Shown piece by piece: positions 10,014-64,000 of a stretch of DNA of 64,000 bases. Made by a program: the position numbers and the translations under genes. This stretch comes from Psammoneis japonica (taxonomy: Eukaryota), in contig QPGO01000022.1 in the NCBI GenBank assembly GCA_008632985.1, positions 558,001 to 622,000 of the forward strand. The letters are read 5' to 3'. Every line of letters begins with the position of its first letter. Position 1 is the stretch's first letter. A model generated the notes under the pieces. It saw only the letters and a list, made by a program, of their open reading frames with translations. It made no database searches and had not been told where the DNA came from.

Positions 10014-10548
10014 GGTTCGGACAAATTGACCAGGAGTTTATGGTGGGGGTCGATTTGTCCACTATCGATTTAGAACACATAAACATGGGGTGGACAAATC
10101 TACCAGGAGTTTATGGTGGGGGTCGATTTGTCCACTATCGATTTTAAGACCACATAAACATGGGGTGGACAAATCTACCAGGAGTTTATGGTGGGGGTCG
10201 ATTTGTCCACTATCGATTTTAAGAACACATAAACATGGGGTGGACAAATCTACCAGGAGTTTATGGTGGGGGTCGATTTGTCCACTATCGATTTTAAGAA
10301 CAGATAAACATGGGGTGGACAAATCTACCAGGAGTTTATGGTAGGGGTCGATTTGTCCACTATCGATTTTAAGAACACATAAACATGGGGTGGACAAATC
10401 TACCAGGAGTTTATGGTGGGGGTCGATTTGTCCACTATCGATTTTAAGAACACATAAACATGGGGTGGACAAATCTACCAGGAGTTTATGGTGGGGGTCG
10501 ATTTGTCCACTATCGATTTTAAGAACACATAAACAAGGGGTCGAACCC
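10014..10548. repeat. Tandem array of 7 x ~75-bp palindromic units inside a MITE-like element (copy 1; right TIR partly deleted)
   Basis: Unit AAACATGGGGTGGACAAATCTACCAGGAGTTTATGGTGGGGGTCGATTTGTCCACTATCGATTTTAAGAACACAT. It carries the internal inverted repeat GTGGACAAATC/GATTTGTCCAC. Confidence 0.9.
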
Positions 10549-10656
10549 GGCCAGCCACGCACGTACATAACATTTCGCGCGTTCCATCCAAGCCAACAGC
10601 ATCTTTCGTGCGCTGCGCGAGCGTACCCGCCCGGTACAGCAGTTTGCGCTCTCACC

Positions 10657-24400: not shown

Positions 24401-27400
24401 GTTGAAGTTGTTGTTTGGGGGATTGCATTGCCCCACAAGAATTCTCCAGTTTGCACACCATTGCCACCACTGCAGTGCACTGTTTGACTGCAAGTGGGCC
24501 CCACACTTGTTGTTCTTGAGGAAGTGATGCTCCTGTGCCCAGCTTTGATCCACTCTAGATGCACGTTGCTTGCAGAATTGGGAGGTGACATTTTGGAGAG
24601 TCTGGCAGGTGTCATGTGCCTCTTTTGACAAATGGCATGAAGAGGTCAGTGGTGTGTCGTTTGCCATGCACAGAGCTCTGGCATGTCCAAGAGCATCTCC
24701 ATGGTTGTTTGTTCCTGCTTGTTGCATTTCTGGCAGTTTTCAGTTTTGCAGTGGGAAAGTGAGTTGTCTCCCCATCATGTGTCAGTGCACTGTCTTCAGG
24801 GGCATCAGGGACAAGGCTCCTGTGCCCATTGGTCCTGGGCATGAACTGCTCCAGAAGTGCATTTGGAGCACTCCCAACTGGGAGGTCTGCAAGTGGTGCA
24901 GAAGATGATGACATTTGGAGTGAAAACAACAAGGTGAGATCTGAAAACTCCCATGTGCACACAAAGCATCCAAGCTTGCTCTGGTGTGGATGCCTCTTTT
25001 TTACAAAACCCAGCCCCCTGGCAACACTTGCCCAAACCCCCTTCTGCTGTTCCTTTCCACCCCTTGCTTCTCAACCCCAGTGGGCCAGAGCCTGTGAAAA
25101 TGTTCCAGGGCTGTGTGGACTGCAATGGTTGGTCAAGCCTTTGACAAAAGTGTGCAAGACACACCCAGCAGCCAATTTCTTCTAAAGCAGCAGCTTCTGT
25201 CTCAAAAATCTTGACAAACAGCTTCAACTTCAAGCTGGACAAAATTCCCATCTTGGACACACCATGTTGCTTCTTTTTCAAACAGCTGTCATTGCAAACC
25301 CCTTGTGCTGCTGCTGGTGCTCATGCACAAGAAAGCAGCAAAAAGTGTGTTGAGTGGATGAAATGTGATGTGGAAATGGTGAAGAGATCAACACAATCAT
25401 GCCGCTGACATGATTGCTGTGCATTGAGTCATCTCTTGGTGTTGTTTGTAAAAGCAGATTTTTCTTGGTTGCAGTGTGGAGCACATGTTTGACACACAGG
25501 TGCTGCACAGAGCACAGACTTGGTTCACAGGTGCTGTCACTTTAACCATGGAGGAGAGAGTGGGCCATTTTGGTGTGGCGCAGGTGGCAGCATGATTGTC
25601 ACGGCAATGCTGAAAAAAGATGATGTTCTCACTAAACTTGTTTTCAGTTGTCATGGCAAGAACCAGCTCAGCAAAAACACAAAGGTCATGCTGGCTCTCT
25701 TGACATTCACATCAAGATGCACCCAAGGACAAGGCTGGCATTGAGCAGAGTGGCTTTGGCACCACAGCACCCAAAGCCACCACAATTGGTGCCATTGTTT
25801 TTGCACAAGGAAAAGTGAAAGATGAGCAATGCTTGCTTTGCACTGTGTTGTTGTTGTTCATGCATGCTGTCAGAATTGTGAGCAAATCAAAAGCAGAGCT
25901 GACCCCACATTAGATTGCATCAAAAATTCTGTGTGTGCCAGAAAGCATGAAAAGTCCACATCAAGTGTCAATCTTCAGCCTTTTTGTGTGACTCTGGTGT
26001 TCTCTCTTTGTCCTGGGAGAAGGTTTTGTCTCAACTGTCACAGTGGGCTAGATTTTTTTACAATTGTCAGAGCCACCACACTGGCATGATGGACGATCCA
26101 AATGCAAGTGACAACCAACCAACCACAAATGTTGCACCCCAAGAAAGCTTGTGTGCTCACCAGACATGCTTTTCTCAACATTTTGGATCTTTTGCATTGT
26201 TCTTTTTCATGTCAGCAACTTCTGAGACAGTTCAACATGCACAAAGCCAGCAACACAGCAATGAACATGTGGTTTTTGCAACATGGAAAGCACCTGCATT
26301 GCATCCTCTCTGTCCAAAATTTTGGCTGTGTGCACTCACACAAAAATCTTGCCTTGTTGCTGCTTTCTTGAATTTTGTCAAGATGCAAAGGAGCTGTGGA
26401 GGGCTTTGTCAGAGCTCCATTTTGCTTCAAAACAAACAAGCAAGACATTGTTCTCTTTTGCTTTGCATTGATTCAAACAGTCAGTGCGCGACACCCCCGG
26501 GCTGAGAGTCACAAAAAAGCAAAAATGGGCTCCTGACAAACAGCGTGTGTTGAACATTTTCATTTGTCCTCATTTATTTGCTGCACATTGCTCTAATTTT
26601 TCAGCTCACTTTTGCTTTCTTGTTCCTTCTCATTGAAGTCAGAAATGCTCCATTTGCTGGATTGTGCACTTGGATTTGTTTGGCATGGCAAAAAACAAGC
26701 AAGCAGCTTTCAAAGCTTGGAAGGGAAAATGATTTTCATTGTCAGCATTTGATGTGCTTTTCAAAATGATGCACAGCAGGCATCTCTTGCACAGGAGCCA
26801 GCATCTCTGCCATCACATGGCTGCAATCTGAGCTCAAGAATGAGCTTGAAATTGATGGCTCCAGGTTGACCAAATGGCCAAAGATTGTTGGCTGCAGCCA
26901 CCTTGCTGTTTGTTTTCTAAACAAGAGGTTGACAGGCTTCCCAGTGCCCATGCCAGCACATGATGTGCTGGGGCAAGGCCTTGGACTGAACCAACATGTG
27001 GCTTGCCATTTCCCAACATTTTGTGTGTGATGTGATTGGAGTTGCGCTTGACTGTTGTCTCGGTGTTCCAGTGCTGTGGTCAATTTTTTTTTTTTGGGGG
27101 GGGGGGGGGGGGGTGCATCTTTTGTGTGCATCCCCTGTCCCCACGTGCAGCTGACAACAACAAAATGCCCTTCTGGCAACTCCGTCAATGCCCCTGCTTG
27201 CATGGAAAGGCTTTAAAAAGCACAAAGCCAGTGCAAAGATGTCCACCTGCAGCTGGGCTCTTGACGATGCTGCCGAAAGCAACAACCATGAACCCCACAT
27301 TCTTTGCCTTGTTTGACTTTCCTTGCTGGGACTGAATTGTTGTTTTTTAAGCCAGCTTGCCTTGACAAGAGGTTTTGTCACCTTTGTGTTTGGACCCTTG

Positions 27401-28490
27401 TTTGTCATCTGCAGAATGAGCAATCAGGAAGGCAGGCATCATCTGCCTGGCAAAATGTCAAAGTGCATCCTGTCTTTTGGGAGCTCCGCAAAGCCAATTG
27501 GAGAGTCATTGACATCATTGCAGACTTCAGTGTTGGCACAATTTTTTTGTGACCACAGCTGGGTGCACAACAATGTTTGCTGAGAGGACCTTGGCATTGA
27601 TCTCACTGAATCTTTTCTTGCTGGTTCTTGTCCCAGGTGATGAAATGTGTTTTTTGATCATGTGACAGACCCACAGGAGTGGGTTTGTGGAACAATCACA
27701 GATTTTTTTAATGTGGAAGGAGAGGGCACATTGGCCATGTTCCTGTTTGATGAGCCCTTGTTTTCTTTCACTTGCAAGTGCAGGTGAAGATGGCTGAAGA
27801 AGCAGGCACTGCTTTCTTCTCATTGTTTCCTGGTGAGATTGATGAATGAGCAACAAACAAGCAACGAAGTTGTTTGGAGATTGTGGCTGCCCCACAAGAA
27901 CTCTTCAGCTTGTGTTGCCACTGCAGTGCATTGTCCAAGTGCACATGGGCATGATCCAAAACTTGTTCTTGAGGACACACTCCTGTGCAAAGTTTTGATT
28001 TGCTCCAGATGTGGGTTGCTTGTAGATTGGGAGGCAAGATTTGAGAGTCTGGCAGGTGTGGCATCTCTGTCAATGGATGATGTGAACACGTCTGTGCAAT
28101 TTGCTTTGCATGGAGCCCCAGATTCTCAAAACTGTTTGTGCTTTGAAAGAAGTCATCAGCTTGGCAACAGATCATGGCATCAGTGGCAGAGCTCAGTTGT
28201 CACATTGGAAGCAATGAATTTGTCAAAGAGATTGACAAACAATTGCAGAATTTTGGTGTTGGCCACGGCTCTCAGGGAGACAGCTAAGATCTGTTTTTGT
28301 GAGCAACACCCACAAGAAAACGATGGTCCAAGGCAGTTCATCTGAGGCCTTGGGGTGCAACTTGTCTTCAGAGTGGGTTTGGTCATGATCATTGATGGCC
28401 AACAGGGTCCACTGTTAGAAAGCTTGCAGACCAGTCTTCCTCATCAAGGATCTTGCTGATGGCAAAAGGTAGAAGTGGGATGATTGGATG
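19760..28490. repeat. Degenerate repeat block strongly depleted in CpG and TpA, with internal diverged duplications
   Basis: Almost no CG or TA over ~8.5 kb. 20660-22630 resembles 24680-26490, and 24060-24620 resembles 27500-28070. Confidence 0.8.
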
Positions 28491-28743
28491 AAACGACCCC
28501 CCGCCCACCCCACGCCACACGTGCAAGACCCAATCGATTCGAAGACGTGAATTGTACATTGCATGGAGCTGACTTCGGAGTGAAGGGAACACAGGGGAAG
28601 TCGTTCTCGTTTCGATTTTGCCCAATGTGCGCTACCCTGAAGCAAAAGTCCCAACGTTGCGTTTAAGACTTTCGGAGCCAGTGCAACGACTGCATCGCCG
28701 ACCCCAATATAATAATTATGCAGCAAAAAGCAAATAACCTCTA

Positions 28744-30993: not shown

Positions 30994-31199
30994 TGGGGAA
31001 GTCTCCAGCCAGCTGCTGGCTGAAGAAATTTGTGTAGAAATTGTACTGAAAGAGTCTGTCAATCTGTGCGTTAGGGGGTTTTGGTGAACGCTGGACAGAC
31101 TCGTCTTCTTTTGCGTACGTAAAAATTGCACTTGCAAAACCCCCAAACGCACTGACGAGCAGACTTTTTTCAGCCAGCAGCTGGCTGGAGACTTCCCCC
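30994..31199. mobile_element. MITE (~206 bp) with ~34-bp TIRs and candidate 5-bp TSD AATCT
   Basis: GGGGAAGTCTCCAGCCAGCTGCTGGCTGAA at 30995 recurs in reverse complement, ending at 31198. AATCT lies at 30989-30993 and 31200-31204. Confidence 0.75.
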
Positions 31200-32349
31200 A
31201 ATCTGGAAAATCTGAATCGCAATCTCCAAATCACAAATCCACCAATGAATGGAATCCACTGCACCACACTTCGCATGTTTCACCGCGCAAAATTGGAAAT
31301 AGGAGTTCGGTGAACGCGAACTGCCGATGTGTGCGGCCTTCATCACAAGTCTCTCTCACATCTGTCACATTTTCCAATTTCGAGTTGGGTCGACCGCTGC
31401 CTTTTCCATTCAACATTGTCGATTGTCGCCACAGATGGAAGCCAAAGCTAAATCTTCATCTGCCAGCTGTGCTCAAGATGTCAGGTCCCAGGAAGCAAAA
31501 AAGGCAAGCGAAATCCCAAAGAACGGGTGCAAGGAGGAGGGGAAACAAAAGGTGGAAAAGCGCAGAAGAGTCGACAACGTGTTTGTGGCCCATGCACCTG
31601 CTCTGCTGGTGAACCACCAATCCATGAATGCTTTGATGGCTCAGAAGAGCCAGCTTGACTTTGAGAAATCTGCGAGTCTGGAAAAGAAGAAAGCACTGCC
31701 AATGATCAAGGAAGTCTGAAAGGTGGCTGCAGATGCTGTGCATGTGCAGACAAATTGCAGCAAGTCTGAACACATTGCACTGACCAAAACTCCCCATTGT
31801 CAGGTCATGGTGCTGCTTTGGCTGACCAAATTGGTGCCAACTCCTCTCTGCATCTGGCTGATGACATGAGCAGCTTTCTCCAATCCTGGCTCCCACGGCG
31901 CTCTCACCGCTCACCGCTGCTCAGAATCACCTTCAGCGTGTGCATCAGGATGTTCTCCATGGTTGTCTGCAACAGAGTGATGTCTTCTGCAGTCAACTGT
32001 TGGATGTTGCTGCAGGTTTTGAAGCAGAGAGTCATCTTCTTGCAAGTGTCATGGCGGCCAACACGTGTGGAAGCTGAAAGCTGAGCCCACACTTTTGACA
32101 GCTTGAGGACCAACGTCTGCAGAAGGAGTCGTGCGAGGTAGAGGCAGTGGTGAACACACCGAATCCTGCCTCTCTAGAGTTTGAATATCCGGTTTATCGA
32201 AATGTTGCCCGGGTGTTCTTCTACTGTAAACCCCATTCCTCTTTTGACCGTATCTTACTTCCACATGGATCATTGCCGACCAATACCGAAAAATGCCTAG
32301 TAGTATGACTTTTTAAATCACTAGATGAAATGCCACTGAGTTCCAGTTT

Positions 32350-36614: not shown

Positions 36615-37658
36615 CTAGTGGTGACTAGTGATCGAATAGGACAGGGCGCCGAGGAGTGCTAGTGCGATACCCATTAGGTTCGTACCGGTGAAAGGATGAC
36701 CACCAAACATATAGTGGCCTGATACGATAATACCCAGCCTCCTGATCGCATCGCATGCACCGTAGGTAATCGGAGCAACGAGTCCAACGAACATGAACGA
36801 CAAAACGTATTCTACATGGTAGGCAACCACAGCCATGTATGACAACCACAGAGGCGGATCCCTATATTTTGGGTCCATTGACTTTGATCCGCTGTATTTC
36901 TCTCGAACCGAATGACTCACGGCCATCATACTTGTAATGACAAAACCAACAAAGACCATCGCACGTTGCGCTTCCGGTCCAGCAATTCCTGTTTTGCTCA
37001 TTATACGTTTGCTGCTTACATTTAAAGCGCTTTGGGCTGCCATTGAGGCGATTGAAGCAAGAAATCCGACCTTTTCAAAGTGCGGGTGATCCCAGGACGC
37101 AGCCGCAATCCCTAGTGCAATTGGTATCAACGAAAGCAGAACTGGGATCTTTGGTAACGCCTTTTGACCATCGAGCAACAAAGTTAAAAGAACTGTCACT
37201 AGCGGAATGCCACATTTGGTTGTATAAGTCAAGGAAATTCCAATTCGGTCAAGACTGACCGAATTGGAGTAGTTGGCAAGAAAAAGAAATGAAGCCGGGA
37301 TTATAAAATCTGGAACGGCGGCAATCGTGTCACTGAGTCTTCCGATTACGTCAAAGTCTTTATGAGCTAGCAAACCCAACAAAAGAGATCCCCTGAATCG
37401 CCTCAGCGTCAGAAGGTTAGGGCGGGACAAGGAAGTAGCGACTGAAACCTCTTGTGTGGATTCAGAGCCAGGTAGCGGTGGTTGCCATTTCAGGAACTTT
37501 GTAGTGGAGTATGTTGTGAGGAGCGCAGACGATGCAATCCAAAGCCCGCCAACAACGTTCACATTATTCGCAACAGAAGTCAGTACTCCCGGTGCTGCAC
37601 CCACAATCTCAGGAGCAGCGGATGACATCGTTTGGAAGGCCGGTGCAGTAGGTGTCAT
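36615..37658 (-). CDS. Triose-phosphate/phosphate-translocator family (DMT superfamily) transporter
   Basis: 8-10 TM segments. Motifs SLTYTTKCGIP and VAPITYGACDAIRR. Confidence 0.75.
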   Translation of the reverse strand: MTPTAPAFQTMSSAAPEIVGAAPGVLTSVANNVNVVGGLWIASSALLTTYSTTKFLKWQPPLPGSESTQEVSVATSLSRPNLLTLRRFRGSLLLGLLAHKDFDVIGRLSDTIAAVPDFIIPASFLFLANYSNSVSLDRIGISLTYTTKCGIPLVTVLLTLLLDGQKALPKIPVLLSLIPIALGIAAASWDHPHFEKVGFLASIASMAAQSALNVSSKRIMSKTGIAGPEAQRAMVFVGFVITSMMAVSHSVREKYSGSKSMDPKYRDPPLWLSYMAVVAYHVEYVLSFMFVGLVAPITYGACDAIRRLGIIVSGHYMFGGHPFTGTNLMGIALALLGALSYSITSHH

Positions 37659-38038
37659 TGATCATGTCACGGCGCGGCGACCGGCGACCAACCAAAGATT
37701 TCGACTGACGATTGAGAATTTGAGAGGCATGACACAACATCACACACGCGCGCGACGCGATGTTGATGTTCGAGTTCTCTTTGTTTGATGTCATGACCAG
37801 ACCTAAGCTCATTACCCATTAGGTCTGTTCCAGAAAATCAATTCGAATGAAGGGAAACAACTGCGTACTACAAGAGCACAATCAGAAAAGGTAGAACAAG
37901 TAGCTACAACGTAGGGTGTTTAATTGCAGCGCGGAAATAACTGGACTGGAAACGAAAGGCAGCGACAAACTTGTGGGAAATCAACGAGTTGTCAACTCTC
38001 GGAACCCCCAAGCTCTCAGCCATCTACTGGATATCACG

Positions 38039-41000
38039 TCACTTTTTGCCACGGCGACGAATTCTAGAAATGGCACCACTCCCGGGCTTCCCTGAATCCC
38101 GTTTTGGACTCTTACTCACAGCGCTACCCGTCGAAGATGTAGTCCGGTGGCTTTCACTCCGCACCATGGTTTGTTGAAGGTTATCGAGAGTCTCTGTTGA
38201 ATCAGCTTCCACTTTTGCATACTCTGGCTCAGGTGGCCAGTCATAGAACCGTTGATACATCAAAGGAGAGTATGGCACAACAATGTGGTGAACCTTTGTT
38301 GGGTCGATCTGTCGGTATGCTGCTTGGCTGTTGCCCGACACGTTACTCTGGAAAAACGGCTCTTCTTCTGGCTCCTTCTCACAAGCACTTTTCTTAACCC
38401 GTTCGGGCTTTGGCCTGTTTACAAAGCGACGGATCCGATTACCAAGGGCTAACCTAATAACGAGGTTCTGGATATCGGACGAAGTGATTGGTTAGAGCTG
38501 GGTGTCAACGCTTACAACGAAGGGCTTACGGAAGGTTCGTACACACTCGAACTTACCTGCGGTCCAACGAGGACCAACCCAACAACGAAGAGAACCGGTC
38601 GCCAAGGGAATAGATGCAGAACGACAGCCACTAAAGGAACGAAAATGCTTATCCAAAATGAAAGGATTGGATCTTTCCAAGTAAAGATGTTGTACAAAGC
38701 GCGAATACCTTGAAGAAAAATCAAGGCTATGCCAACAATCGGTTCAAGGAACAAACCAACTTTCGCCACAGCTTTGTTTGAATGCGAAAATTGTCCGCAC
38801 TGCAGGCTTCTATCAAGCTGTGTCTTGGCATCCTCCTTCACCTGCCGCTTTTTGACCTTTCGACGTGAAATAGTCCTGGAAAATCTAGCGTTTGGGTACT
38901 TTATGTCGTAGACTTTGTCGTTAAACCAATGAAGTAGAATTGCATTCAGCCGTCCCTTAACCTTTTGCAACTCATCTGTTAGCTTCTTTTCCGATTTTCG
39001 CACGATGTCCATGTTCTGTGGGGGTGGCGGCCTTTGTGATGGCGGCACAGCCGTCTCCAACACGTCTACGTCGTTCTCTGAATAGGCAAAATTCTCGGAA
39101 GACGATTTATTCAGTCCACTAAATTGGTTGTGGGGAACACTGAATTCGTCAAGGACCGAAGAACCGTCTCCAAGTTGTTCGATCGCGTCAATCTCCCCAT
39201 CATCATCATCTTCGTCACTCTCCAACAAATCTACTTGAAGGGCACTCATCCTCCGCATCTTCTTTTCCGAAGATAAACGGGAAACCAGTGATTCCTTAAC
39301 AGTAGATTTTGGATAATCATCGACAAAGTCTGAAAAAGGGAACTCAAGATGACCATGGTTTACCACACCGGAGACGTAGCTGTCGTCGTATAGTCCAAGC
39401 ATTCTCAACAACTCTTTGCCTTTGGGTTGATTAGTTGTGAACACGTATTTCTCTAACGACACATCAAGAAATCTGTAGAACAGCTTCTCATCTTTGAAAG
39501 AATGCTCTTTCTTAACGTGCTCGAAAAGCTTGTATGACTTAACAAGCGCACGTCCAATTCGAACTGCATCCTTCCTTGACTTGGCAATGTTTGAGTTCAC
39601 GAGAAAATCAACTCCGTCTGTACCGGTGAACACATTCTTGTAGGACCTCAATCGATGTTTGTAGGTTCGAACAGGAACACCCGTCCTCATTCGCTCGGCG
39701 ATCTCCCGAAGAGTCAAGCTAGTTTCAGTTTGTGAGGTAGGATCATCCTGTGAGCCCATTGAACGAGCTGAACCTTCTGGAGATATCAACGTGCTGGAAC
39801 TGCCATCGAACACCGGGTTGTAAACCTGCATACCGATTGGTGCAATACATGGCGGCTTTTGATCAGGACCACCAAACATTACCGCGTGCATCATTTGTTC
39901 CCATGTCGGCGGTTGGAATCCCCTCTGCCCCGGGCCGTCCATGCCGTATCTTGCATAATTTTTCCAAAGGTAAAGGAGCAGGAAAGTCAAAAAGTGTCCA
40001 GGGAGATATGCGACGGAGTTTTGATAAACGCAGTGCATCCATGCAGCAAAGACAAACAAAGAAATGATCGGATTCTCCCAAACAACAATTTTCTTGGATT
40101 CTGGCCTCAAAATCATCCGGATTATCATGATTCGGGTAAAATTGATCTCTCGCATTGTCGCCTTTAGTTGCTTGAAAGAAAAGTGTCCTTGCATGTGTTT
40201 TCCATGGACGGTCTTTGCAACATTCTGAAAGGCCGTTTCATCATAGCAGCGAACTGTCGTACTTCGATTGGGCTGGATCTTGGGTACCTTTTTAGGCAGA
40301 TATGATAACATGGCAGATCTTTCACTTTTCCAGTCGAGACGGAATCTCAACCGTACCGAGCCTCTCTGTCGACGTGCGTAAACGTGAGCTGATTCTCGAA
40401 GTGGCAGCGTCACATCATAAGTCGAGCTATGTCGAAGCCTGGCGATGTCCACAACTACCCTACCAGCAAAATCGTCCCTCTCCTTCTCTCCGTCGTTGTC
40501 GAAGACACCGACGTAGAGCCGAGCATAAGCGTGAAAAAGCGGAAAGATACAGGCACGGCGCATTTTGCAAAGCCACATTGGGTTTGCCACATCGGGAATC
40601 GTGTCTGTTGAAAATGCGTGCGCACCGCAGACAATGTAAACGACAGGATCAGTTTCTCCGACCACATCTAACTTTGGGAGCCCGAGGCACTGTAACACCT
40701 CAACTCGGAGCGTCCCAATTTCTTCACCCATCCTCGAAGGTACTCTGAGGTCGTGGAAATGAGAGGAAGGCTTCTTCATTTCCAGTCGCAGTTCATCTCG
40801 ATTGAACCGCACATTCGGGTAAGCGTAGCTTGGCTGCACAGTAAACTCTACGTCATCACCTTTCACCTTGCGCGCAATATCTTCAGCTTCAGTGAGAGCG
40901 GTTGCCATACTGGCCCTGCCCTGTCCCTTCAAGTTCATCTTTTCCCGAGCCATTTTCGATGCTAGAGCACTGCGTTCTCTCCCTGAAATCCGATTTCTCG

Positions 41001-41655
41001 AGAAGCGACCGGGACTCTCTTTGGTTGCGGAAGCTCCTGGATTCGACGACATGAGCCTACCCAATTTGACGAATGCTTCAACCCATAGGGACTTTTCGAC
41101 CGAGCCTCGCGGACAACGGAAGACAAAGCTCACTCTGGAATCAGAGCCAGCCTTTGAAAGGTACTTATCGAGTCCAACAGAGCTATTGAGTACGGAAGCA
41201 ACAGACTCTTCGTCGTCATCATCGTCCCCCATCTCCTTTACACCAACATTATGTGCGTCCACATCAACGATAAACGACGGAGAATTCTCAACATCACGAG
41301 CAGTCCAATCAACAGTCGCGGGAAAATGTATAGTAAGGGTCTTCGAATCGAGCGAGTACCCACTGTTGTCAATACCTGAACTATCGTGAAAGCTGCTAAG
41401 AGCCTTTTTGTCCTTGCCTATGGCGTGATGACACGAAAAGCTCCCGTCAGAAATGTTTAGTATAACATATCGCCGTTTCCAGCCACCCATACCACGTTGC
41501 TTCTTTTGGTAGAGGGAACCCTCCAAGGATTCTCGCGAAGACTCAGATCTCTGCGGTCTCCGAAACGAGTCGTTGTGGTCAAGGCTGTAATCTTCTTCAT
41601 GTTCTTCCGAGACTGACGGAATTTGTGACTTGCTGGAAGAAGGTCGAGCTAGCAT
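38039..41655 (-). CDS. PH-like/C2/DEP-domain membrane protein, copy 1; intron 38468-38556
   Basis: PH-like LEGSLYQKK..WKRRYVIL, C2 GTLRVEVLQCLGLPKLD, DEP FTGTDGVDFL..FKDEKLFYRF, and an MCTP-like TM end (FTWKDPILSFW..VGPQ|N). Confidence 0.85.
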
Positions 41656-41876
41656 GTTGCTTTTTCTTTTCAACGGGGACTAATGCCTTGCAGATAGGAA
41701 ATAAAGGTGAGGGCGGAAGCGACGGGTTGATGCAACGGGAAAAGTGTATACCAGTGCTGAGAACTACTTTGGAATTGTATCTTTTTTGGTACCGGTATCT
41801 CGATCCTCTCGTGTTGGTGTTGACCTCGTCCCACGTTGTTGCTTTCAAGCAGTAGCAAAGTCGTCTCCATGGTGCT

Positions 41877-44672: not shown

Positions 44673-45208
44673 GGCCAGCCACGCACGTACATAACATTTC
44701 GCGCGTTCCATCCATCCAAGCCAACAGCAATCTTTCGTGCGCTGCTCGAGCGTACCCGGTACCGGTACAGCAGTTTGCGCTCTCACCATGACGGATGACA
44801 TCGTTTGGAAGGCCGGTGTAGTGGGTGTCATGTCACGGCGACCGGCGACCAAAAGATTTCGACTGACGATTTGCATCAATCATCACATCCGAGTGTCATC
44901 ACATACCGTACCACGCGATGTTGGATCTTGATGTTCGAGTTCTCTTTGTGATGTCATGGCCAGACCTAAGCTCATTACCCATTAGGTCTGTTCCAGAAAA
45001 TCAATTCGAATGAAGGATGAAGGGAAACAACTGCATACTACAAGAGCACAAGCAGCAAAGGTAGAACAAGTAGCTACAACGTAGGGTGTTTAATTGCAGC
45101 GCGGAAATAACTGGACTGGAAACGAAAGGCAGCGACAAACTTGTGGGAAATCAACGAGTTGTCAACTCTCGGAACCCCCAAGCTCTCAGCCATCTACTGG
45201 GTGTCACG

Positions 45209-48200
45209 TCACTTTTTGCCACGGCGACGAATTCTAGAAATGGCACCACTCCCGGGCTTCCCTGAATCCCGTTTTGGACTCTTGCTCACAGCGCTACCCG
45301 TCGAAGATGTAGTCCGGTGGCTTTCACTCCGCACCATGGTTTGTTGAAGGTTATCGAGAGTCTCTGTTGAATCAGCTTCCACTTTTGCATACTCTGGCTC
45401 AGGTGGCCAGTCATAGAACCGTTGATACATCAAAGGAGAGTATGGCACAACAATGTGGTGAACCTTTGTTGGGTCGATCTGTCGGTACGCTGCTTGGCTG
45501 TTGCCCGACACGTTACTCTGGAAAAACGGCTCTTCTTCTGGCTCCTTCTCACTAGCACTTTTCTTAACCCGTTCGGGCTTTGGCCTGTTTACAAAGCGAC
45601 GGATCCGATCACCAAGGGCTAACCTAATAACGAGGTTCTGGATATCGGACGAAGTGATTGGTTAGAGCTGGGTGTCAACGCTTACAACGAAGGGCTTACG
45701 GAAGGTCCGTACACACTCGAACTTACCTGCGGTCCAACGAGGACCAACCCAACAACGAAGAGAACCGGTCGCCAAGGGAATAGATGCAGAACGACAGCCA
45801 CTAAAGGAACGAAAATGCTTATCCAAAATGAAAGGATTGGATCTTTCCAAGTAAAGATGTTGTACAAAGCGCGAATACCTTGAAGAAAAATCAAGGCTAT
45901 GCCAACAATAGGTTCAAGGAACAAACCAACTTTCGCCACAGCTTTGTTTGAATGCGAAAATTGTCCGCACTGCAGGCTTCTATCAAGCTGTGTCTTGGTA
46001 TCCTCCTTCACCTGCCGCTTTTTGACCTTTCGACGTGAAATAGTCCTGGAAAATCTAGCGTTTGGGTACTTTATGTCGTAGACTTTGTCGTTAAACCAAT
46101 GAAGTAGAATTGCATTCAGCCGTCCCTTAACCTTTTGCAACTCATCTGTTAGCTTCTTTTCCGATTTTCGCACGATGTCCATGTTCTGTGGGGGTGGCGG
46201 CCTTTGTGATGGCGGCACAGCCGTCTCCAACACGTCTACGTCGTTCTCTGAATAGGCAAAATTCTCGGAAGACGATTTATTCAGTCCACTAAATTGGTTG
46301 TGGGGAACACTGAATTCGTCAAGGACCGAAGAACCGTCTCCAAGTTGTTCGATCGCGTCAATCTCCCCATCATCATCATCTTCGTCACTCTCCAACAAAT
46401 CTACTTGAAGGGCACTCATCCTCCGCATCTTCTTTTCCGAAGATAAACGGGAAACCAGTGATTCCTTAACAGTAAATTTTGGATAATCATCGACAAAGTC
46501 TGAAAAAGGGAACTCAAGATGACCATGGTTTACCACACCGGAGACGTAGCTGTCGTCGTATAGTCCAAGCATTCTCAACAACTCTTTGCCTTTGGGTTGA
46601 TGAGTTGTGAAGACGTATTTCTCTAACGACACATCAAGAAATCTGTAGAACAGCTTCTCATCTTTGAAAGAATGCTCTTTCTTAACGTGCTCGAAAAGCT
46701 TGTATGACTTAACAAGCGCACGTCCAATTCGAACTGCATCCTTCCTTGACTTGGCAATGTTTGAGTTCACGAGAAAATCAACTCCGTCTGTACCGGTGAA
46801 CACATTCTTGTAGGACCTCAATCGATGTTTGTAGGTTCGAACAGGAACACCCGTCCTCATTCGCTCGGCGATCTCCCGAAGAGTCAAGCTAGTTTCAGTT
46901 TGTGAGGTAGGATCATCCTGTGAGCCCATTGAACGAGCTGAACCTTCTGGAGACATCAACGTGCTGGAACTGCCATCGAACACCGGGTTGTAAACCTGCA
47001 TACCGATTGGTGCAATACATGGCGGCTTTTGATCAGGACCACCAAACATTACCGCGTGCATCATTTCTTCCCATGTCGGCGGTTGGAATCCCCTCTGCCC
47101 CGGGCCGTCCATGCCGTATCTTGCATAATTTTTCCAAAGGTAAAGGAGCAGGAAAGACAAAAAGTGTCCAGGGAGATATGCGACGGAGTTTTGATAAACG
47201 CAGTGCATCCATGCAGCAAAGACAAACAAAGAAATGATCGGATTCTCCCACACAACAATTTTCTTGGCTTCTGGCCTCAAAATCATCCGGATTATCATGA
47301 TTCGGGTAAAATTGATCTCTCGCATTGTCGCCTTTAGTTGCTTGAAAGAAAAGTGTCCTTGCATGTGTTTTCCATGGACGGTCTTTGCAACATTCTGAAA
47401 GGCCGTTTCATCGTAGCAGCGAACTGTCGTACTTCGATTGGGCTGGATCTTGGGTACCTTTTTAGGCAGATATGATAACATGGCAGATCTTTCACTTTTC
47501 CAGTCGAGACGGAATCTCAACCGTACCGAGCCTCTCTGTCGACGTGCGTAAACGTGAGCTGATTCTCGAAGTGGCAGCGTCACATCATAAGTCGAGCTAT
47601 GTCGAAGCCTGGCGATGTCCACAACTACCCTACCAGCAAAATCGTCCCTCTCCTTCTCTCCGTCGTTGTCGAAGACACCGACGTAGAGCCGAGCATAAGC
47701 GTGAAAAAGCGGAAAGATACAGGCACGGCGCATTTTGCAAAGCCACATTGGGTTTGCCACATCGGGAATCGTGTCTGTTGAAAATGCGTACGCACCGCAG
47801 ACAAGGTAAACGACAGGATCAGTTTCTCCGACCACATCTAACTTTGGAAGCCCGAGGCACTGTAACACCTCAACTCGGAGCGTCCCAATTTCTTCACCCA
47901 TCCTCGAAGGTACTCTGAGGTCGTGGAAATGAGAGGAAGGCTTCTTCATTTCCAGTCGCAGTTCATCTCGATTGAACCTCACATTCGGGTAAGCGTAGCT
48001 TGGCTGCACAGTAAACTCCACGTCATCACCTTTCACCTTGCGCGCAATATCTTCAGCTTCAGTGAGAGCGGTTGCCATACTGGCCCTGCCCTGTCCCTTC
48101 AAGTTCATCTTTTCCCGAGCCATTTTCGATGCTAGAGCACTGCGTTCTCTCCCTGAAATCCGATTTCTCGAGAAGCGACCGGGACTCTCTTTGGTTGCGG

Positions 48201-48941
48201 AAGCTCCTGGATTCGACGACATGAGCCTACCCAATTTGACGAATGCTTCAACCCATAGGGACTTTTCGACTGAGCCTCGCGGACAACGGAAGACAAAGCT
48301 CACTCTGGAATCAGAGCCAGCGTTTGAAAGGTACTTATCGAGTCCAACAGAGCTATTGAGTACGGAAGCAACAGACTCTTCGTCGTCATCATCGTCCCCC
48401 ATCTCCTTTACATCAACATCATGTGCGTCCACATCAACGATAAACGACGGAGAATTCTCAACATCACGAGCAGTCCAATCAACAGTCGCAGGAAAATGTA
48501 TAGTGAGGGTCTTTGAATCGAGCGAGTACCCGCTGTTGTCAATACCTGAACTATCGTGAAAGCTGCTAAGAGCCTTTTTGTCCTTGCCTATGGCGTGATG
48601 ACACGAAAAGCTCCCGTCAGAAATGTTTAGTATAACGTATCGCCGTTTCCAGCCACCCATACCACGTTGCTTCTTTTGGTAGAGGGAACCCTCCAAGGAT
48701 TCTCGCGAAGACTCAGATCTCTGCGGTCTCCGAAACGAGTCGTTGTGGTCAAGGCTGTAATCTTCTTCATGTTCTTCTGAGATTGACGGAATTTGTGACT
48801 TGCTGGAAGAAGGTCGAACTAGCATGTTGCTTTTTCTTTTCAGCGGGGACTAATGCCTTGCAGATAGGAAAGGTGAGGGCGGAAGCGACGGGTTGATGCA
48901 ACGGGAAAAGTGCATACCAGTGCTCTATCTTCAATTCTCAT
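45209..48941 (-). CDS. PH-like/C2/DEP-domain membrane protein, copy 2; introns 48850-48917 and 45638-45726
   Basis: Near-identical to copy 1. It has an extra in-frame 8-codon first exon (MRIEDRAL). Confidence 0.85.
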
Positions 48942-49170
48942 TTTTGGCACCGGTATCTCGATCCTCGATCCAGATCCTCGTGTGACCTCGCGAAGCCACA
49001 ATCTTTTTTAAGGGTCGCGCGACGATGATTGCAGATACCAAGGTTCGCACGTAGGATCCTACTTACGAAGAATCCACATACTTGCGCACGCACTGGGGAA
49101 GTTCGTACTTGTACGTTAGAAAGGAGCGAGCTCGTACGGTACCGCCCGGTACTTTTTTGACGCTGCAACG

Positions 49171-50924: not shown

Positions 50925-51056
50925 AAGGAAAGTCCTTTGATTCCAGTCACTAGAGTCTTTGTTGAGTACGACTTGCGGTTTATTTTGTTGATTCAGATTG
51001 CTTTGCTTCCTTCTGGTTGTTTTTGTCCTTGATTTTTTGTGAGCGTTGTTTTGAGT

Positions 51057-54000
51057 TTAAAATAGAAGATTAAGGAAGCCTATGTAGAGCGGAAGGTAAC
51101 AGCAGAGGGAGGCACGGAGGTAGCTGTAGAGACGGTAGAGTAAAAGGGTCGATGGACGCAAGACGAAGGGCGTTTTGTGGAAGGTATGGGTGAGGAGGGG
51201 GCAGGGAGAGAGGAGGTGAATCGGAGGATGTGCGTAGAAAGGTGAAGAACAACGTTGTAGCCAAGAGTTTGGGTGGCCCACTGGGATGGGGTGGCTGTAC
51301 GGTAGGTGCTTCCAAAGCGATCGGCGGACAGGCGACGCCATGCGGAGTCAGCAGAGGGAAGGATTGCAGACGGAGACGATAAAGCGTAGAGGAAGGCGGA
51401 GTAGGAGGCATCGGAGTGACGAAGGTCAGAGGAAGAGGACCAGGGTGGCTTGGGCTGAGAGCAGACGGGGGGGGATGTAGAACCAAAGAGCAAGCGGTGG
51501 GCAAAGTAGCCGAGACCACCAAGGTGATCGACAGTGAAGGGGAGCAGGAAGATGCCATTGTTGTTGAGCGAAGAAACAACAAGGGATCCATCGGCAGAGG
51601 AAGTAGAGGGGCCAAGAAACTTCAATCTCGCACTCGAGTGGTGTGCCTCAGTTAAGATAGGAGAAGAGGGGGCAGGCAGACCTGGAGGAGGGCAAGAGGA
51701 AGCTTGAGGGACGGTGACGTCCACTGCAATGTAGTGATGGCGGGAGGGAGCGGAAAGGGAGGCGGGAGGGGGGACAGAAATGCCGACATCGGCGGGACGG
51801 AGAAGCGGGCGGGTGGGGAGCAGGTTGGTGGGTTCAAGATGAACGTCATTGGGGGATCGACAGAACTCTGCAAGAGGACCCAAAGTTTGGGCTAGGATGA
51901 AAACAGTGTCACGGAGACCATTGGAAAGCTTGGACTTGTGAGCACGGCGGCAAGAAAAGGCATGATCACCACAGGCGTCCAGAATGGCATGGCCACAGGG
52001 ACAGGGAGTGTTGACAAGGGACGGAGGAAGGATGGGGAGACAAGCTTACGAAGGGCGGCGACAGCGCAGGCGTCCGAAGAAAGGCGGGAGCTTGGAAAGC
52101 GACGAGAGAAGGAATGAAGAGGAAGGCTTGCAAGCGGAGACAGCAATGAAGGGAGTGAAGATTGCACGTCGTAAGATGAGTTAGCAAGGATGGAGGTCAC
52201 TGCTTGTTGCTGATGTTCGTGGTAGAGACGACGGGCCAGGCCGGGGAGAGTGGCCGATTTAACCAGGGCAGCCAAGGAAGAAGAGGAAAGGGTAGAGGCG
52301 GAAGCCAGACGGGAGCACAACGGCGGAAGAGCGCATGGAGTCGCAGGGAAGAGCGAGGGTTGGACCAGGAAGACAGGGAGAGCCGAAAGCAGCGCGGAAG
52401 GGAAACAGAAGCGCCAGATGGCAGGCTGACACCGTGCGAAGCAAAGCGGAACGAGCGGAGAAGCGACACCAAGAAGGAAGGAATGGCGGCAGCTGTTGGG
52501 TCCCGGAGACCAAACCCGCCTGAGGAGGCAGGAAGGAAGGCGATGGCAATAGAGTGGTCGGGAAAAGGAGCGGTGAAGGAAGTGACGTAGTGTAGAAAGC
52601 GGCGAGCAACGGTGAGGAGGAAATCTTGAAACGGAGAGGTCCAGAGAAAGGGGTCGGAAGGATTGTCGGGGTCGAAGTTGCAGTGGAAGTCAGCTCCAAG
52701 AAGGTGAGCAGAGGATGGAACAAAACAGTGCTTGAAGAGTTGAGCCTGGGTTTGTTCATCATGGAGACGGGTGAGAAGCACATCAACTTTGTCGGAGAGA
52801 GCAGAGGAGGTGTCGGAAAGGAAGGAGGTGGCGAAGTCGTGGGAGCCGAGGGGCTGTCCAAGGAAGCGAACACCAGAGGTGAGTTCGGGGTTGCAAGAGG
52901 GGTCATTGGTGGGGTTTAAGAAGGAAAGTGCAGCACGGAGAGAATCGGCGCGGGAAGGGGGAAGAGCAGGGATGGGGCTGACACTGGCAATGGAGGTGAG
53001 GATCTTGGTTTTACGGGAGGTTGAGGGAGATTCCGCAGGGAGCACCGAGGGCGGAGAAGCGTTCAAGGAACCATGGGAGTGCAGAATGGGGAAGGAAAGC
53101 ATGAGCATCATCAATGCAGGAGCCAACTGAGACAGAGGAACGGCCAGGGATGCGTTCTTGAAGTTCTTGGTTAATCGGACGAAGAACCAGAGAGAGGACT
53201 GGGCTGGCGAAGACAGGGCCGAGAGGGCATCCTTGGGCAAATCCCTCTTCTTGAAGAAAGGAGCCCCAGGAAGAATCGGGTCGGCGACACCAACATGTGT
53301 TGGAACTTTGACACAGAAGGTCAAAAAAAGGAAGCAGAGGATGAAAGGCAGGGGTGGAAGTGAGAACGTGTCGACAGGCATCTCGAGATGCTTCGTTGAA
53401 CATGTTGACGAGGTCAAGAAGAAGAAGAGCCTTGGCAGAGTCGGCAGAAGAAAGATGTCGTTCAATGTTGGCAAGAGCAGAGTGCATGAGATGATCGAGG
53501 CCACCTTTGACACCAATGCCAAATTGGCCATCTGGGAGGAGGCATTCGGCAAATGCAGAACCAAAGAGAGTCATGACGACGGAGCCGGCGATGCGACGAA
53601 GAGCAGCACCGACGCCAATGGGGCGAAGCTTGTTGAGGTCGCTGGCATCTTCATGCAAAGCGACAAAGTGGTTCGAAGCAAACAAGGAATGGACGGAGGA
53701 AGGAATGGAGCCATGGAGCAGAAGAAGGACAAGCTCACGAAAGGATGACAAGCAGGGGCGTTGAGCAACACCTGTTGGGGTTTTGGTGGAATGGAGGGCG
53801 CAGGACTTGAAAAGGTCGGCAGAATCAGCAAAAACACCGGCAGCAGTCCCAGGCTTACATTTGGAGAGAGCGGAAAGAAGAGCATTGGAGGAGAGCTCAA
53901 CAGGCTCATTGTGAAGGGAGGAGGCCGAGCGAGTTGAAGGAGGATTGGGCAGGTCGGAGGGGTGCAGGCGAGGAGGGTAGAGCTTGAGGATGGCAGGAAG

Positions 54001-56050
54001 GCGCTCAGGAGTGACGGCAGCAACAGGAAGCGCAGAGGTGAGCTTGGAGCAGGCCGAGTGAAAGTCATCTTCGTCGGCGCAAACATGAGCAGAGTGGCAA
54101 CAGGTGGAAGCAGAAAAGTCGGGGGAAGATGAGGAGAGGCGTGGCGTGTGGGAGTGGGCTTCGTGGTAGAGTTGGCGAATGCAGCCACGGCGGAAGAGGG
54201 ACAAGCGGGAGGCAATGGTGGGGCCAAACTTGGAGCGTGGCGGGACAGGAGCAAGAATGAGAGCTTCAAAGAGTAAGAGCAGCTTCCAGAAGGGAGTGGA
54301 GTCACGTTGCCACATAGGAATGAGGTGGGAGGGGTCAGAGAGAGGCTGGGAGGCGGCCAACACCCAGCTTGTCACATGATGGAGAGCAGAGCAGAGTTCC
54401 TTGCGGGCGGAGGACGAGAGCTTGTGGCGGCAGGAAGCTCGGAAAGGCGGAGGCTCGAGTGCAAGAGCATGGAGCCATTGTAGCGAGGGGCCCCAGTCAC
54501 CTAGATTGTGGAAGGACGAGAGAACAATGTCAGTGTCAAGGGAAGAGCGAGGAGCGAAGTGCTTGTTCTGCAAGTGATTGCAAAGGTGGGTGGCAGATGG
54601 GCAGGTGCATTGGCTGTGATTGCAATGCCTGCAGACATGCAAACCAGCGGCATCGAAGAAGGACGTAGGTGCATGAGAAAGCGAGAGACGGGGATGCTCC
54701 TGGCGAAGATGGCTGTGCACAGAAGTGGGAAGGGATGATGCATCAATGGAAGGAGGGGACCAGGAGCAGAAGGGGCAAGTTGGCGGGGCACGGGCTTCGG
54801 TGGGTTCCACGAGGCGATGAGATCGCGGAGGGAGTCGATGTCAGGGGCTGCAGCCCGGATGGCTTCTTCGTAGAAAGGTTGCCAGGTAGAAAGGCGGGCC
54901 GGGCAGCAAGTGCCTGTGAAGGCATCAAGGACATCCAAGAGTTCCATCTCGCGCTGGGACTGCTGGGGATAAACCGAGTCATCAGATTCGGTCTGCACAA
55001 TTGCATCGGGAGCGGTGGGGGGCGGAGAGGTCTGCAAAACTACGGCAGGAATGGCGGGGGGCGGAGAGAGAGTGTCGGGAGAAGAGTGGGGACGTTTGGA
55101 GGGAGGAGGCTCGGTGGTGAGGGAGCGGGCTTGGGGAGGATGGGAGGAAGGAGATGCAGTGGCAGGGAGCGGATCTTGGGGCTTGGGGAGCTGCCAGTCT
55201 TGAGCAAGCAGCTCAAGGGCACGACACGAGAAAGAATCTCGAGAGGGAGCGGGCGGTTGAAGAGCAGCAGAGGCGTGGGATGGGGAAGTCACACTGTCGT
55301 CATGGGCAGATTCCGCCACAGAGGTGAGGAGATCCAAGGGAAAGCCGGGACAGTTGTGTGGGTTGGCATCCACAAGAGCAATTGTGCACGGAGACGGGAA
55401 AAAGAGCAGCTTGTACTTGATTGGGAGGGAGTCATGAGCAGAGAAGATGGGGGTGAGGGAGTGAAGATTGGTTGTGGCAAGGAGACGACTGATGCCAGGT
55501 TGGGTGAGAGGAAGAAGAAGACGGTCAGAGATGACCACTTTCATGTTGCTCTGACGTGAAATGAGCTCGGAGAGGGCGTTGTAGGTGGAAGCAAAGTTGG
55601 CCGGGGCTGGGAAGGGAATGATGGCAGTGGAGGTCCCCAGGATGGAGAAGGAGGCAGGTGGCGCATTGGATGGATTGGTGACATGAAGCAGGGTGTTCCA
55701 GACGGCATCGGAGGCAGTAGAAATGTAAAAAACTGGAAGAGAGCGGCGTCGCGCCTGGGCCGAGTTAGTGGGGTATTGCGAAGGACGAATTCCAACGAGA
55801 TTAAGAAAGGTGGGATGGTCTCGGAAGGATTGAAGGATGGGATTGGTCGCAGTGCTGGAGATCTTGCCAACAAGGAAGGAATAAAGGCGGGATAGAAGAA
55901 ACTCAGAAGTACGTCGAGAAGAACCGTAGAGGGTTGGAGAGGGGCCAGCAAGGACACCATGAGCCTTTTCTTCGAAAGAGTTGCAGGCCGGGATCATAAA
56001 GGTACAGTGCCGAGCCCAAGGATTATCGGTTTTCGCGCTTCAGCTCTTAT
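51057..56050 (-). mobile_element. Decayed CRE-clade non-LTR retrotransposon (zinc fingers, RT, restriction-like endonuclease); ends approximate
   Basis: C2H2-like CPFC..HLRQEH. RT motifs LRPIGVG, QFGIG, DLVNMFN, GFAQGCPLGP, SCIDD, FLGQPLG and LPASSGGFGL. RLE motifs RPADV..AVDVTV. Several frameshifts and stops. Upstream ORF 54501-55997. Confidence 0.85.
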
Positions 56051-62229: not shown

Positions 62230-64000
62230 ACCGATGTGTCGAGCGAGCGCTCGCGAGCGAGCGAGCGAGCGCTCGCGAGCGAGCGATCCATCCACAGGAT
62301 CTGTCTCGCTTCTGCCTGCGGTTCACCAGCAAACTGGGTGAAGCAGGGACCTTCGTGGACTGGACTGGTGTGTTGATGGACACGTGCACGAGCCTTGCAT
62401 CGTCCAATCCCAAGCTGGACGGCTGGGCCAGAGGGGTGGGCAAGGTGGGGGTGTTTGGGGCTGTCTCTCTCTGTTTCACTCTCTGCTGTGATGATGATCA
62501 GCTGCTGTTGTTGCCGCGCTGCTTTTTGGAAGAGCTGCAAACGGAAAGCAACGAGGTGTGAGTTGCTCTCTGCTGAACACAAGCAGTCAATTGCTTGTGG
62601 TGGTTGGAATGACTGCAATGGTTGGAGGAGCATTTCAATGGTCACGAGAGGGCTCCACCTCACCTTGTCGAGCTGCTTGAGGCAGAGCTGGGGCGGTGCC
62701 ACACCCTCCGTTCACCTGTGTGGTTCACTGGCAAACTGGGGAAAACAAGAGTCTTCTTGGACAGGCCTGGTTTTGTCAGTCAGACACCACATGAAGTGTG
62801 TGAGAGACTCTGACTCGGGACCCGTGCCATGCACACACACTGGGAGGAGTTGGCCTGGTGGGTGAGGGTGCAACTGGAGAAGGATGTGGCATCATGGCCC
62901 GCCAGCAGGCATGGGGACATTGGCATTGGCTAAGATGGAGGTTGAAGTCACTGGCAAGCATTTCTTGGGCAAAGTTGTGCATGGTGGGCTCTGCTTGGTG
63001 GGGTGATGGCATCGCAACATTCAGTCAGAATGCTGCCTGCCCAAGAGGAGTCATGCCAGATCAGCATCCACATGGGCACAGAAAACAATGCCATGGTGCC
63101 TGCTGTGGCATGACAACACTGAGCAGAAATGTCAGAGATCATGTGGCCAAAGTTGGCTGGGTCAAGAGCAACAACAGTGCTGTGCAGAAGAATGCGGGCA
63201 ATGTTGGCTGGCCCTGAGAGACATGACACCAGGCATCAATGTGAAAACATGTGCCAAGGGGCATGTGTCAGAATGTGCTCCATGGGTGCTGCACAAGCAT
63301 TTGGTGCAACAGACTGGAGCATGGGTGGGGCACAAATTGTGGTGGCCTAAAAAGCCTGGGCTCCAATTGCTTCCCCACGCATGCTGTTTTTCTGGGCTGT
63401 GAAAGCAAAGGCAGAGAAGAAAGCAGCGGCATGATCAAGTTGTGCATCAGGAACTTGGAACAAGTCCACACAGTGGCCACCTGTGGTCAGGCAAACACTG
63501 TCAAGGTGGAAAAGTGTCACATTGGATGGGGTGGTGGCACACTCTCTGCGACATGGCAGGGAAAAAAATGTGATGGCTGTCATGTCACCATCACAGCTTG
63601 GGCACCTGGTTGTTTGCTGGTGGCTGCTGCACACACGACATCCGCAAGAGGATGGCAATGGGGGGCTGGCTTTACCCAGCGTGGCAGTGGATCCTCTTTT
63701 TCTTTTGCAAAATGAACTTGGCGGGAAAGCCACAAATCCATCTTGCCCAACTTTTCTCAACTTTCTGCCAACACAAATGACAGCAACATGTGCAGCAATT
63801 CATTGTTGCTGACAATGTGAGCCTGTCAAGCTGCTCCAAGTGTGTGGGTGGGTTGTTGTCATGAACAGTGCATTTTGAGTTGATCACCTTTGCTCAAACT
63901 TGATTTCTTTCAACTCCAAGAAATCATGGTTGCTCTTCTCACATGAGAGTTTTGAACTGCAGAGACGGAGGAACAGCTTTGTCCACTCACTGGGGGGAAC
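62230..64000. repeat. CpG/TpA-depleted degenerate block, probably a transposon remnant, running off the window; begins with a GAGC-repeat palindrome
   Basis: Abrupt compositional switch at about 62300 to TG/CA-rich sequence with almost no TA. Internal ~60-bp repeat at 62311 and 62711. Confidence 0.6.

Follow-up and report, generated by a model that had tools for sequence, protein, structure and literature searches.

The 64-kb stretch of contig QPGO01000022.1 analysed here (64,000 nucleotides; the window) carries one copy of an R2-like retrotransposon without long terminal repeats (non-LTR), whose central reading frame has been stripped of most of its TpA while keeping CpG. The depletion, the direction and sequence context of the substitutions, their absence from host genes and the differences between copies of the element are all seen directly. 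As their cause we favour, with a probability of roughly 60%, a host process at the DNA level that would have acted repeatedly on this retrotransposon family, changing the A of TpA to G. A TpA-directed process is already known, as a 2026 preprint shows it in Bigelowiella natans (10.64898/2026.01.13.699255). The window probably adds a new example of this very recently described hypermutation, in what is probably a new host, as well as data on its relation to CpG decay. With a footprint in another organism, and on a retrotransposon present in many copies, it would be evident that the process is peculiar neither to one alga nor to viral inserts.

Loss of TpA in the reverse transcriptase frame

The analysis centres on the following features, the second of which lies within the first:

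53011-54840, minus strand: open reading frame (ORF) of 609 codons, stop to stop, with putative zinc fingers and the fingers and palm of a reverse transcriptase (RT), as suggested by a sub-threshold RVT_1 match, 1601 relatives and matches to R2 proteins
53116-53118, minus strand: TGC codon (Cys575) of the GSCIDD motif, in the place of the Tyr of YxDD according to the alignment with 56 relatives

The 599-residue version of the RT ORF given in the initial annotation (53011-54810) is the identical frame, taken to begin with an in-frame GTG (54810). It had been described as poor in Tyr and rich in Cys and His, with a GSCIDD motif and with TA-free, CG-rich stretches such as 53521-53640. Our counts agree: the frame encodes 2 Tyr, 25 Cys and 38 His, its active site reads ...SVGSCIDD... 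and the stretch contains no TA and 10 CG. The sense strand of the ORF is 67% pyrimidine (A 14.9%, G 18.0%, T 28.7%, C 38.4%). Its observed/expected (o/e) ratios are 0.13 for TA (10 TA), 0.71 for CG, 1.51 for TG and 1.29 for CA, and the two products are nearly equal in number (143 TG, 135 CA); the remaining window outside this ORF has a TA o/e of 0.45-0.46 and a CG o/e of 0.83-0.87. TA is scarce in every codon phase (o/e 0.06, 0.18 and 0.15, versus 0.43, 0.55 and 0.53 in 14 host ORFs). When synonymous codons were swapped among identical residues, preserving both protein and codon usage, 32.8 +/- 3.8 TA were expected and 9 observed, and none of 2000 shuffles gave a count as low; the ratio of observed to expected TA is 0.27 in the RT ORF versus 0.73-0.78 in four host ORFs. 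The depletion is therefore confirmed, and neither chance nor the composition of the protein in amino acids nor its codon usage comes near to accounting for it. That low TpA might be a by-product of the pyrimidine-rich strand or of codon usage is ruled out by the shuffle together with the TA o/e of the relatives (see below). The open 609-codon frame was also considered as a sign of function, and rejected as such because a strand so poor in TA and purines leaves all three sense frames long.

The direction of change was read from an alignment of the RT ORF with 80 relatives (MAFFT). In the 15 columns where Tyr is the commonest residue among the relatives, the window has Cys six times, His three times, Phe three times, Leu once and Tyr twice; for example, a Tyr present in 50 of 73 relatives is His (CAC) here, and another, present in 59 of 71, is Cys (TGT). 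The reading of CIDD as a former YxDD motif is upheld, with Tyr in the respective column in 41 of 56 relatives and TGC as the codon in the window. However, (Y/F)xDD is not, in this clade, the strict motif it had been taken for, since Ile (7), Phe (5) and Val (2) also occupy this column, in some cases in full-length ORFs. Of 188 columns that at least 50% of the relatives conserve, the window retains 159 (85%, the range in 76 relatives being 61-83%), but of the five such columns that hold Tyr it keeps only one. Twenty of the 29 replaced columns lie one nucleotide step from the consensus, and nine of these 20 are transitions that destroy TA, the context being judged by the window's own neighbouring base. 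They comprise four Tyr, two N>D (T|AAC>T|GAC), K397E, one T>A and one L>P (CTA>CCA); K397E strikes a Lys present in 100% of the relatives. Two more replacements are TA-destroying transversions.

The count was extended to all four frame pieces of the element (listed below), with the columns defined by 35 long relatives and the own ORFs of 41 relatives as controls. TA>TG and TA>CA transitions account for 11 of 50 one-step replacements in the window versus 67 of 2485 in the controls (Fisher p 1.6e-7), where they never exceed four per element; in the RT piece alone they make up 9 of 24. This bears out the proposal that TpA was lost through these two transitions. CpG-type transitions at conserved columns show the opposite distribution, with 0 of 50 in the window versus 129 of 2485 in the controls. 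A>G and T>C changes at TpA, and TpG plus CpA products on both strands, are thus present as a footprint and not as observed events. Where at least 90% of the relatives agree, the window departs from them in 4 of 43 columns (P>H, K>E, G>S, D>A), compared with a median of 4.9% among relatives and 0-3% in most full-length ones; the window protein is therefore somewhat damaged at critical sites.

Across the whole window, cut into 128 bins of 500 bp, ordinary genes have a TA o/e of about 0.4-0.9 and a CG o/e of about 1 (15 host ORFs: 0.43-0.70 and 0.90-1.16). Within this one 64-kb window the depletion is confined to mobile DNA, with a TA o/e of 0.13 in the RT ORF and 0.21 in an ORF with a DUF7869 domain, and TA runs inversely to TG/CA over the 128 bins (r = -0.81). 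TA below 0.25 is combined with CG of at least 0.6 in nine bins, six of them inside the element and the others starting at 3001, 4501 and 31001, and with CG below 0.4 in 22 bins; none of the 128 bins has TA of at least 0.4 and CG below 0.4. The region 20001-28500 is nearly free of both dinucleotides (27 TA and 46 CG in 8.5 kb), and further such blocks are found at 62501-64000 and in part of 31001-32000. In all of them TA o/e is 0.00-0.11 and CG o/e 0.00-0.31, TG and CA are about doubled, and strand skew is absent. Twelve ORFs of the 20001-28500 block gave no Pfam family. We regard these blocks as probable ancient remnants of mobile or foreign DNA that have become saturated with mutations.

The window forms a natural series, from untouched host genes over an element that has lost TpA but not CpG to relics that have lost both, and therefore makes the order of TpA and CpG decay testable. 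As the initial annotation maintained, TpA loss is separable from CpG decay; this is supported by the CG o/e of 0.71 in the RT ORF, by the lack of CpG-type transitions at its conserved columns and by the nine bins that have lost TpA only. Its further claim, that TpA loss can come first, fits the complete lack of bins depleted of CpG only; an independent course of the two losses fits as well, all in a single window.

Other copies of the retrotransposon family

Other copies were seen through assembled contigs of a public sequencing run; a search of sequencing runs listed two runs of one sample and no RNA data set. The contigs reach a depth of 59-66 in the flanks, compared with 540-7124 within the element, where depth is not to be equated with copy number, and the 1196 contig pieces fall into 306 that are at least 99% alike, 380 at 95-99%, 319 at 90-95% and 191 below 90%. 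The contigs leave the 3' junction (51052-51057) with differing flanks (agreement 0.47-0.65). The element therefore belongs to a multi-copy family without a single insertion target, and the one fixed target of the CRE elements, among which the initial annotation placed it, is not seen at this junction; the window copy itself sits between two ordinary genes.

Differences between copies were taken from the 40 places listed out of 436 variable ones. At each of the 40, all contigs present differ from the window; variants of the window that occur in one copy only seem to drop out of such contigs. Three codons stand out:

54154-54168, minus strand: codons 225 and 229, with contig differences at 54155, 54156 and 54167
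53200-53202, minus strand: codon 547, with a contig difference at 53201

At codon 229 the window has CAC (His), where two contigs have TGC (Cys), each one transition away from TAC, and Tyr is the residue that relatives have most often here (11 of 37). In the same two contigs codon 225 is TGC, which in the window is TAC, matching the Tyr of 34 of 53 relatives. At codon 547 the window reads CCA (Pro), but 9 of 9 contigs read CTA (Leu), and Leu is also the residue of 71% of the relatives; this TA>CA change is private to the window copy. A synonymous T|A>C|A difference was found at 54148. Former TA sites thus have different outcomes in different copies, and TpA sites therefore kept changing, by different routes, after the copies had separated. 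In total, 15 of the 18 listed places in or at the edge of the element are transitions, six of these 15 gaining or losing TA and six CG, where by our own arithmetic the dinucleotide counts of the element would lead one to expect about 16% TA and 24% CG among random transitions.

Between 51100 and 54800, every contig differs from the window at 13 listed places only. To judge from these places, most TG and CA states at former TA sites are therefore probably common to a sub-family, so that the idea of a single copy captured at an early stage is only partly right. Between-copy divergence was considered as a bar to copy-specific loss and dropped, as a change of 1.4-2% would suffice.

Possible causes of the TpA loss

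In the explanation that we favour, the A of 5'-TA-3' would be converted to G on either DNA strand, giving TpG or CpA, and the mutator would leave CpG and other sites nearly untouched. Since every Tyr codon (TAY) includes the TA target, such codons would have been turned into Cys (TGY) or His (CAY); this would account for the Tyr replacements and, through TAC>TGC at the Tyr of YxDD, for CIDD. TA>TG and TA>CA can remove TAA and TAG (TAA>TGA is still a stop) and can never turn a sense codon into a stop, and the ORF would stay open for this reason. There is a lesson for annotation in this: stop codons cannot arise from such a mutator, so that even mobile genes with many mutations retain long frames and can pass for intact genes. 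Most of the TpA loss would pre-date the spread of the sub-family and a part would be copy-specific, so that the process would have acted repeatedly. As in B. natans, it would be driven by the host and act on DNA, possibly through adenine deamination.

According to the available text of the preprint, two integrated viral regions in mutation-accumulation lines of B. natans mutate about 1000 times as much as the rest of the genome, and 230 of the 231 de novo mutations are A>G or T>C, all of them said to fall on TpA and to give TpG or CpA; RT, endonuclease-RT, DDE and zinc-finger domains are over-represented in TpA-poor coding sequences, and an ADAT2-like adenine deaminase is proposed as the agent (10.64898/2026.01.13.699255). 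Our literature search found TpA-directed hypermutation reported for this one organism only. As far as that text goes, the likenesses are the conversion of TpA to TpG and CpA, the sparing of ordinary genes while foreign or mobile DNA is affected, the long-term footprint of low TpA with high TpG plus CpA, and the presence of RT-bearing coding sequences in the TpA-poor set. On the other hand, mutation was observed de novo in B. natans whereas we see a footprint, and the target there is a single-copy giant-virus or virophage insert, here a multi-copy non-LTR retrotransposon. Moreover, older blocks of the window have lost CpG too, and CpG goes unmentioned in the preprint text at hand. TpA makes up 3.9% of the dinucleotides in ordinary DNA of the window, compared with 6.0% in the reported figures for B. 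natans.

Genes with complete Pfam domains are single long ORFs in the window, in contrast to the intron-rich genome of B. natans, and the host is probably another organism; the PTPA protein, looked up as a pointer to the host, fell into broad eukaryotic clusters only. Fungal repeat-induced point mutation (RIP) and APOBEC3 editing are comparable in being context-specific transition hypermutation of repeated or foreign DNA that leaves a dinucleotide footprint. Both RIP (CpA>TpA) and APOBEC (sense-strand G>A) deaminate C, raise TpA or A and create stop codons, whereas here TpA is destroyed, the GC content goes up and stop codons cannot arise.

Several points count against the mutator that we favour. 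Taken alone, the Tyr test is weak (2 of 5 kept versus 150 of 197, p 0.10). TpA loss is deepest in the RT, the most conserved segment, and weak at both ends, and none of the 11 replacements in the thumb piece is a TA transition; an even, unselected mutator predicts otherwise. Differences between host duplicates give a weak and undirected signal, with transitions at 19/1168 YpA and 24/1417 YpG sites versus 9/1423 YpC and 12/1608 YpT (Y, pyrimidine). The ancestral share of the TpA loss is estimated from 40 of the 436 variable places, and a TpA-poor master must have spread, which would also fit an active lineage purging TpA under selection. In such a lineage, TpA or UpA would have been removed as an escape from a TpA mutator or from an UpA-cutting RNase, and the CIDD protein would be functional. 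The abundance of closely similar copies agrees with this, as do the absence of the 53015 frameshift of the window from other copies, the share of conserved columns kept, which is above that of every relative, the acceptance of Ile, Val or Phe in the YxDD column by 14 of 56 relatives, and a thumb piece that is TA-poor yet free of TA-type amino-acid replacements. It is harder to reconcile with K397E at an invariant Lys, with the breaking of 4 of 43 highly conserved columns, with Cys, the transition product, outnumbering the conservative Phe at Tyr columns, and with different outcomes of one codon among copies. In addition, the non-coding relic blocks are even poorer in TpA, which selection at the RNA level cannot explain. 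We consider an adaptive purge rather unlikely. A bolder and rather unlikely scenario would be escape by target loss: a second, unrelated microbial eukaryote would use a TpA mutator as genome defence, the lineage would have spread by shedding TpA, leaving a nearly Tyr-free working RT with CIDD, and CpG would have been lost later, in silenced relics.

Editing of the transcript before reverse transcription, by an ADAR- or ADAT-like A-to-I activity with a 5' U preference, would give rise to new copies that already carry TA>TG changes, and the A-after-U target context is that of known adenosine deaminases (10.64898/2026.01.13.699255, available text). At conserved columns sense-strand A>G indeed prevails over T>C by 7 to 2, a biased figure, as T>C in third positions is silent. 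Sense-strand T>C is nevertheless present (Tyr>His three times, L547P, the synonymous change at 54148), TG and CA are close to equal in number, L547P is private to an inserted copy and the TpA-free blocks lack strand skew, all of which makes RNA editing quite improbable. We give very little credence to an artefact, such as long-read base-calling errors at modified bases, or to plain composition and codon usage. Each of the three frame breaks of the copy amounts to a difference of one base in length, in one case within a run of C, as is typical of long-read assembly errors, and the strand is indeed rich in pyrimidines. However, the contigs of the public run, whose platform is unrecorded, reproduce the element (306 pieces at least 99% alike) and match one flank (0 differences), the 11 closest relatives are equally pyrimidine-rich with a TA o/e of 0.44-0.63, and the synonymous shuffle excludes codon usage. 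The DNA-level mutator thus remains our preferred explanation.

Identity and layout of the element

The element combines C2H2 fingers at the N terminus with an RT and, at the C terminus, a CCHC/restriction-like endonuclease region in a reading frame of about 1250 codons. The safe name is R2-like non-LTR retrotransposon with a restriction-like endonuclease, the latter being predicted from its motifs. In a HMMER search of 1.84 billion representative proteins, 90 of the 1601 relatives obtained had E <= 1e-30. The best (E 1e-114) has 43% identity over 548 residues, which is the maximum identity found, and the names of the 10 best say nothing beyond "hypothetical protein". Relatives of full length each consist of one ORF of about 1230-1310 residues with the same order of fingers, RT and CCHC-"RPADV...DVT". 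Among solved structures, the family profile matched R2 proteins best (9nl3 and 9dou, E 4e-10; 8gh6, 2.5e-5), while Pfam gave for the RT ORF only RVT_1 with E 2.7e-4, under the Pfam cut-off. A non-LTR type of RT is indicated by these matches and by D476 and D577-D578, which are invariant among relatives, and the N-terminal zinc fingers by C70 (27/28), C73 (27/27), H89 (33/33), H94 (27/30), H44 (21/24) and H49 (23/27). In the endonuclease region, a Pfam scan gave no model match; CPCG..D..GDH.F.C, LRD, RPADV and DVT fall on columns that are near-invariant in 24 relatives.

A word-based protein search with the whole ORF found no match, and with residues 470-609, against shorter proteins, it returned two distant matches only (50% and 38% identity) and no copy of the same family; the passages available from diatom and plankton papers hold nothing on this retrotransposon family. 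With R2, CRE, NeSL, R4 and Hero the element has in common C2H2 fingers, RT and CCHC plus a PD-(D/E)XK-like "RPADV" endonuclease in one frame. R2 targets ribosomal DNA, and CRE1, SLACS and CZAR target spliced-leader genes, whereas the insertions here have differing flanks. Identity of at most 43%, an upstream ORF1-like frame and a pyrimidine-rich sense strand further set the element apart from the R2 group.

In 80 related metagenome loci, TA o/e is 0.44-0.83 (median 0.70), Tyr 1.4-4.2% and Cys 0.7-2.5%, and the window copy falls outside all three ranges. The 11 closest loci have A fractions of 0.17-0.22, C fractions of 0.36-0.45 and 76-89% pyrimidine in third positions, yet a TA o/e of 0.44-0.63. 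By this comparison, the strand composition is inherited and the extreme TpA loss is particular to this family or host. The window element and these 11 pyrimidine-rich loci (L001, L003-L005, L008, L009, L013, L015-L017, L029) together have sense-strand fractions of 0.15-0.22 for A and 0.10-0.18 for G. More distant relatives are A- and C-rich; on the sense strand all 80 are G-poor, and the clade as a whole is rich in C.

Apart from the RT ORF, the copy is made up as follows:

51057-56024, minus strand: whole repeat unit, 5' end near 56024 and 3' end near 51057, placed by a step in depth and by loose contig ends
54870-56039, minus strand: ORF1-like upstream frame, open over 54501-56039 with an ATG at 55997; third-position pyrimidine periodicity extends to about 54870
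53015-53017, minus strand: extra C in a run of C, which ends the RT ORF at TAA 53013-53011; 4 of 4 contigs lack the extra C
52309-53014, minus strand: putative RT thumb region, in the frame of ORF 52197-53570; "...KTKILTS...GVRFLGQPLGS..." fits the consensus of the relatives
52042-52308, minus strand: linker in the third frame (ORF 51892-52689), bounded by two 1-base gaps relative to some other copies
51080-52041, minus strand: predicted C-terminal CCHC and restriction-like endonuclease region (ORF 51080-52045), from the motif columns of 24 relatives

Contigs end loosely, and with flanks that differ, at 51052-51057 and at 56024, and a poly(A) tail is absent from the 3' end near 51057. Only within 52-56 kb does the plus strand show a GC skew of +0.39/+0.41 and an AT skew of +0.25/+0.37. 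No family match was found for the ORF1-like frame, which is less poor in TpA and has 8 Tyr codons left. The thumb piece keeps 58 of 69 conserved columns.

Pyrimidine periodicity shows the coding frame shifting near 54870, at about 53015 and then in two steps within 52308-52041. The last three breaks are 1-base differences from the contigs: one base is omitted at 53015 (depth 2335.6 of 2335.6), where the phase changes from 0 to 1, and one base is added behind 52308 (2597.8 of 4876.5) and behind 52041 (756 of 2593.1), the phase across the linker changing from 1 to 0 to 2. The directions agree with the phase changes and overlapping ORFs span the junctions. From this frame arithmetic, other copies would read through from about 54840 to 51080, some 1250 codons as in the relatives. 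Between 54840 and 54900, the frame changes by -1 from the ORF1-like into the finger-RT frame, the first ATG of the latter does not come before 54315, and no between-copy indel is among the listed places; frameshifting in an overlap of ORF1 and ORF2 is one possible reading, another non-standard start a second. The 1-base gaps of the window are common to about half of the depth at 52308 and two thirds at 52041, and it therefore seems that a sub-family carrying these frameshifts has proliferated, possibly by mobilisation in trans.

Elsewhere in the window, the ORF with the DUF7869 domain (E 1.8e-18) lies at 2448-4514 on the plus strand and encodes 688 residues; with a TA o/e of 0.21, a CG o/e of 0.63, 1.6% Tyr and 4.5% Cys, it is a second mobile-looking gene that bears the same footprint. 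The large block nearly free of TpA and CpG has internal repeats, 19600-20546 matching 20548-21480 (92.9%) and 21309-22195 matching 25268-26134 (72.7%). There is also a 4.2-kb segmental duplication (37619-41808 and 44792-48966; 97.3% identity, 60 mismatches), each copy of which holds an ORF of 1047 residues with C2 and DEP domains. Both copies are flanked by common tandem repeats with periods of 75 bp and 102 bp, which are present also at 9175-10664.

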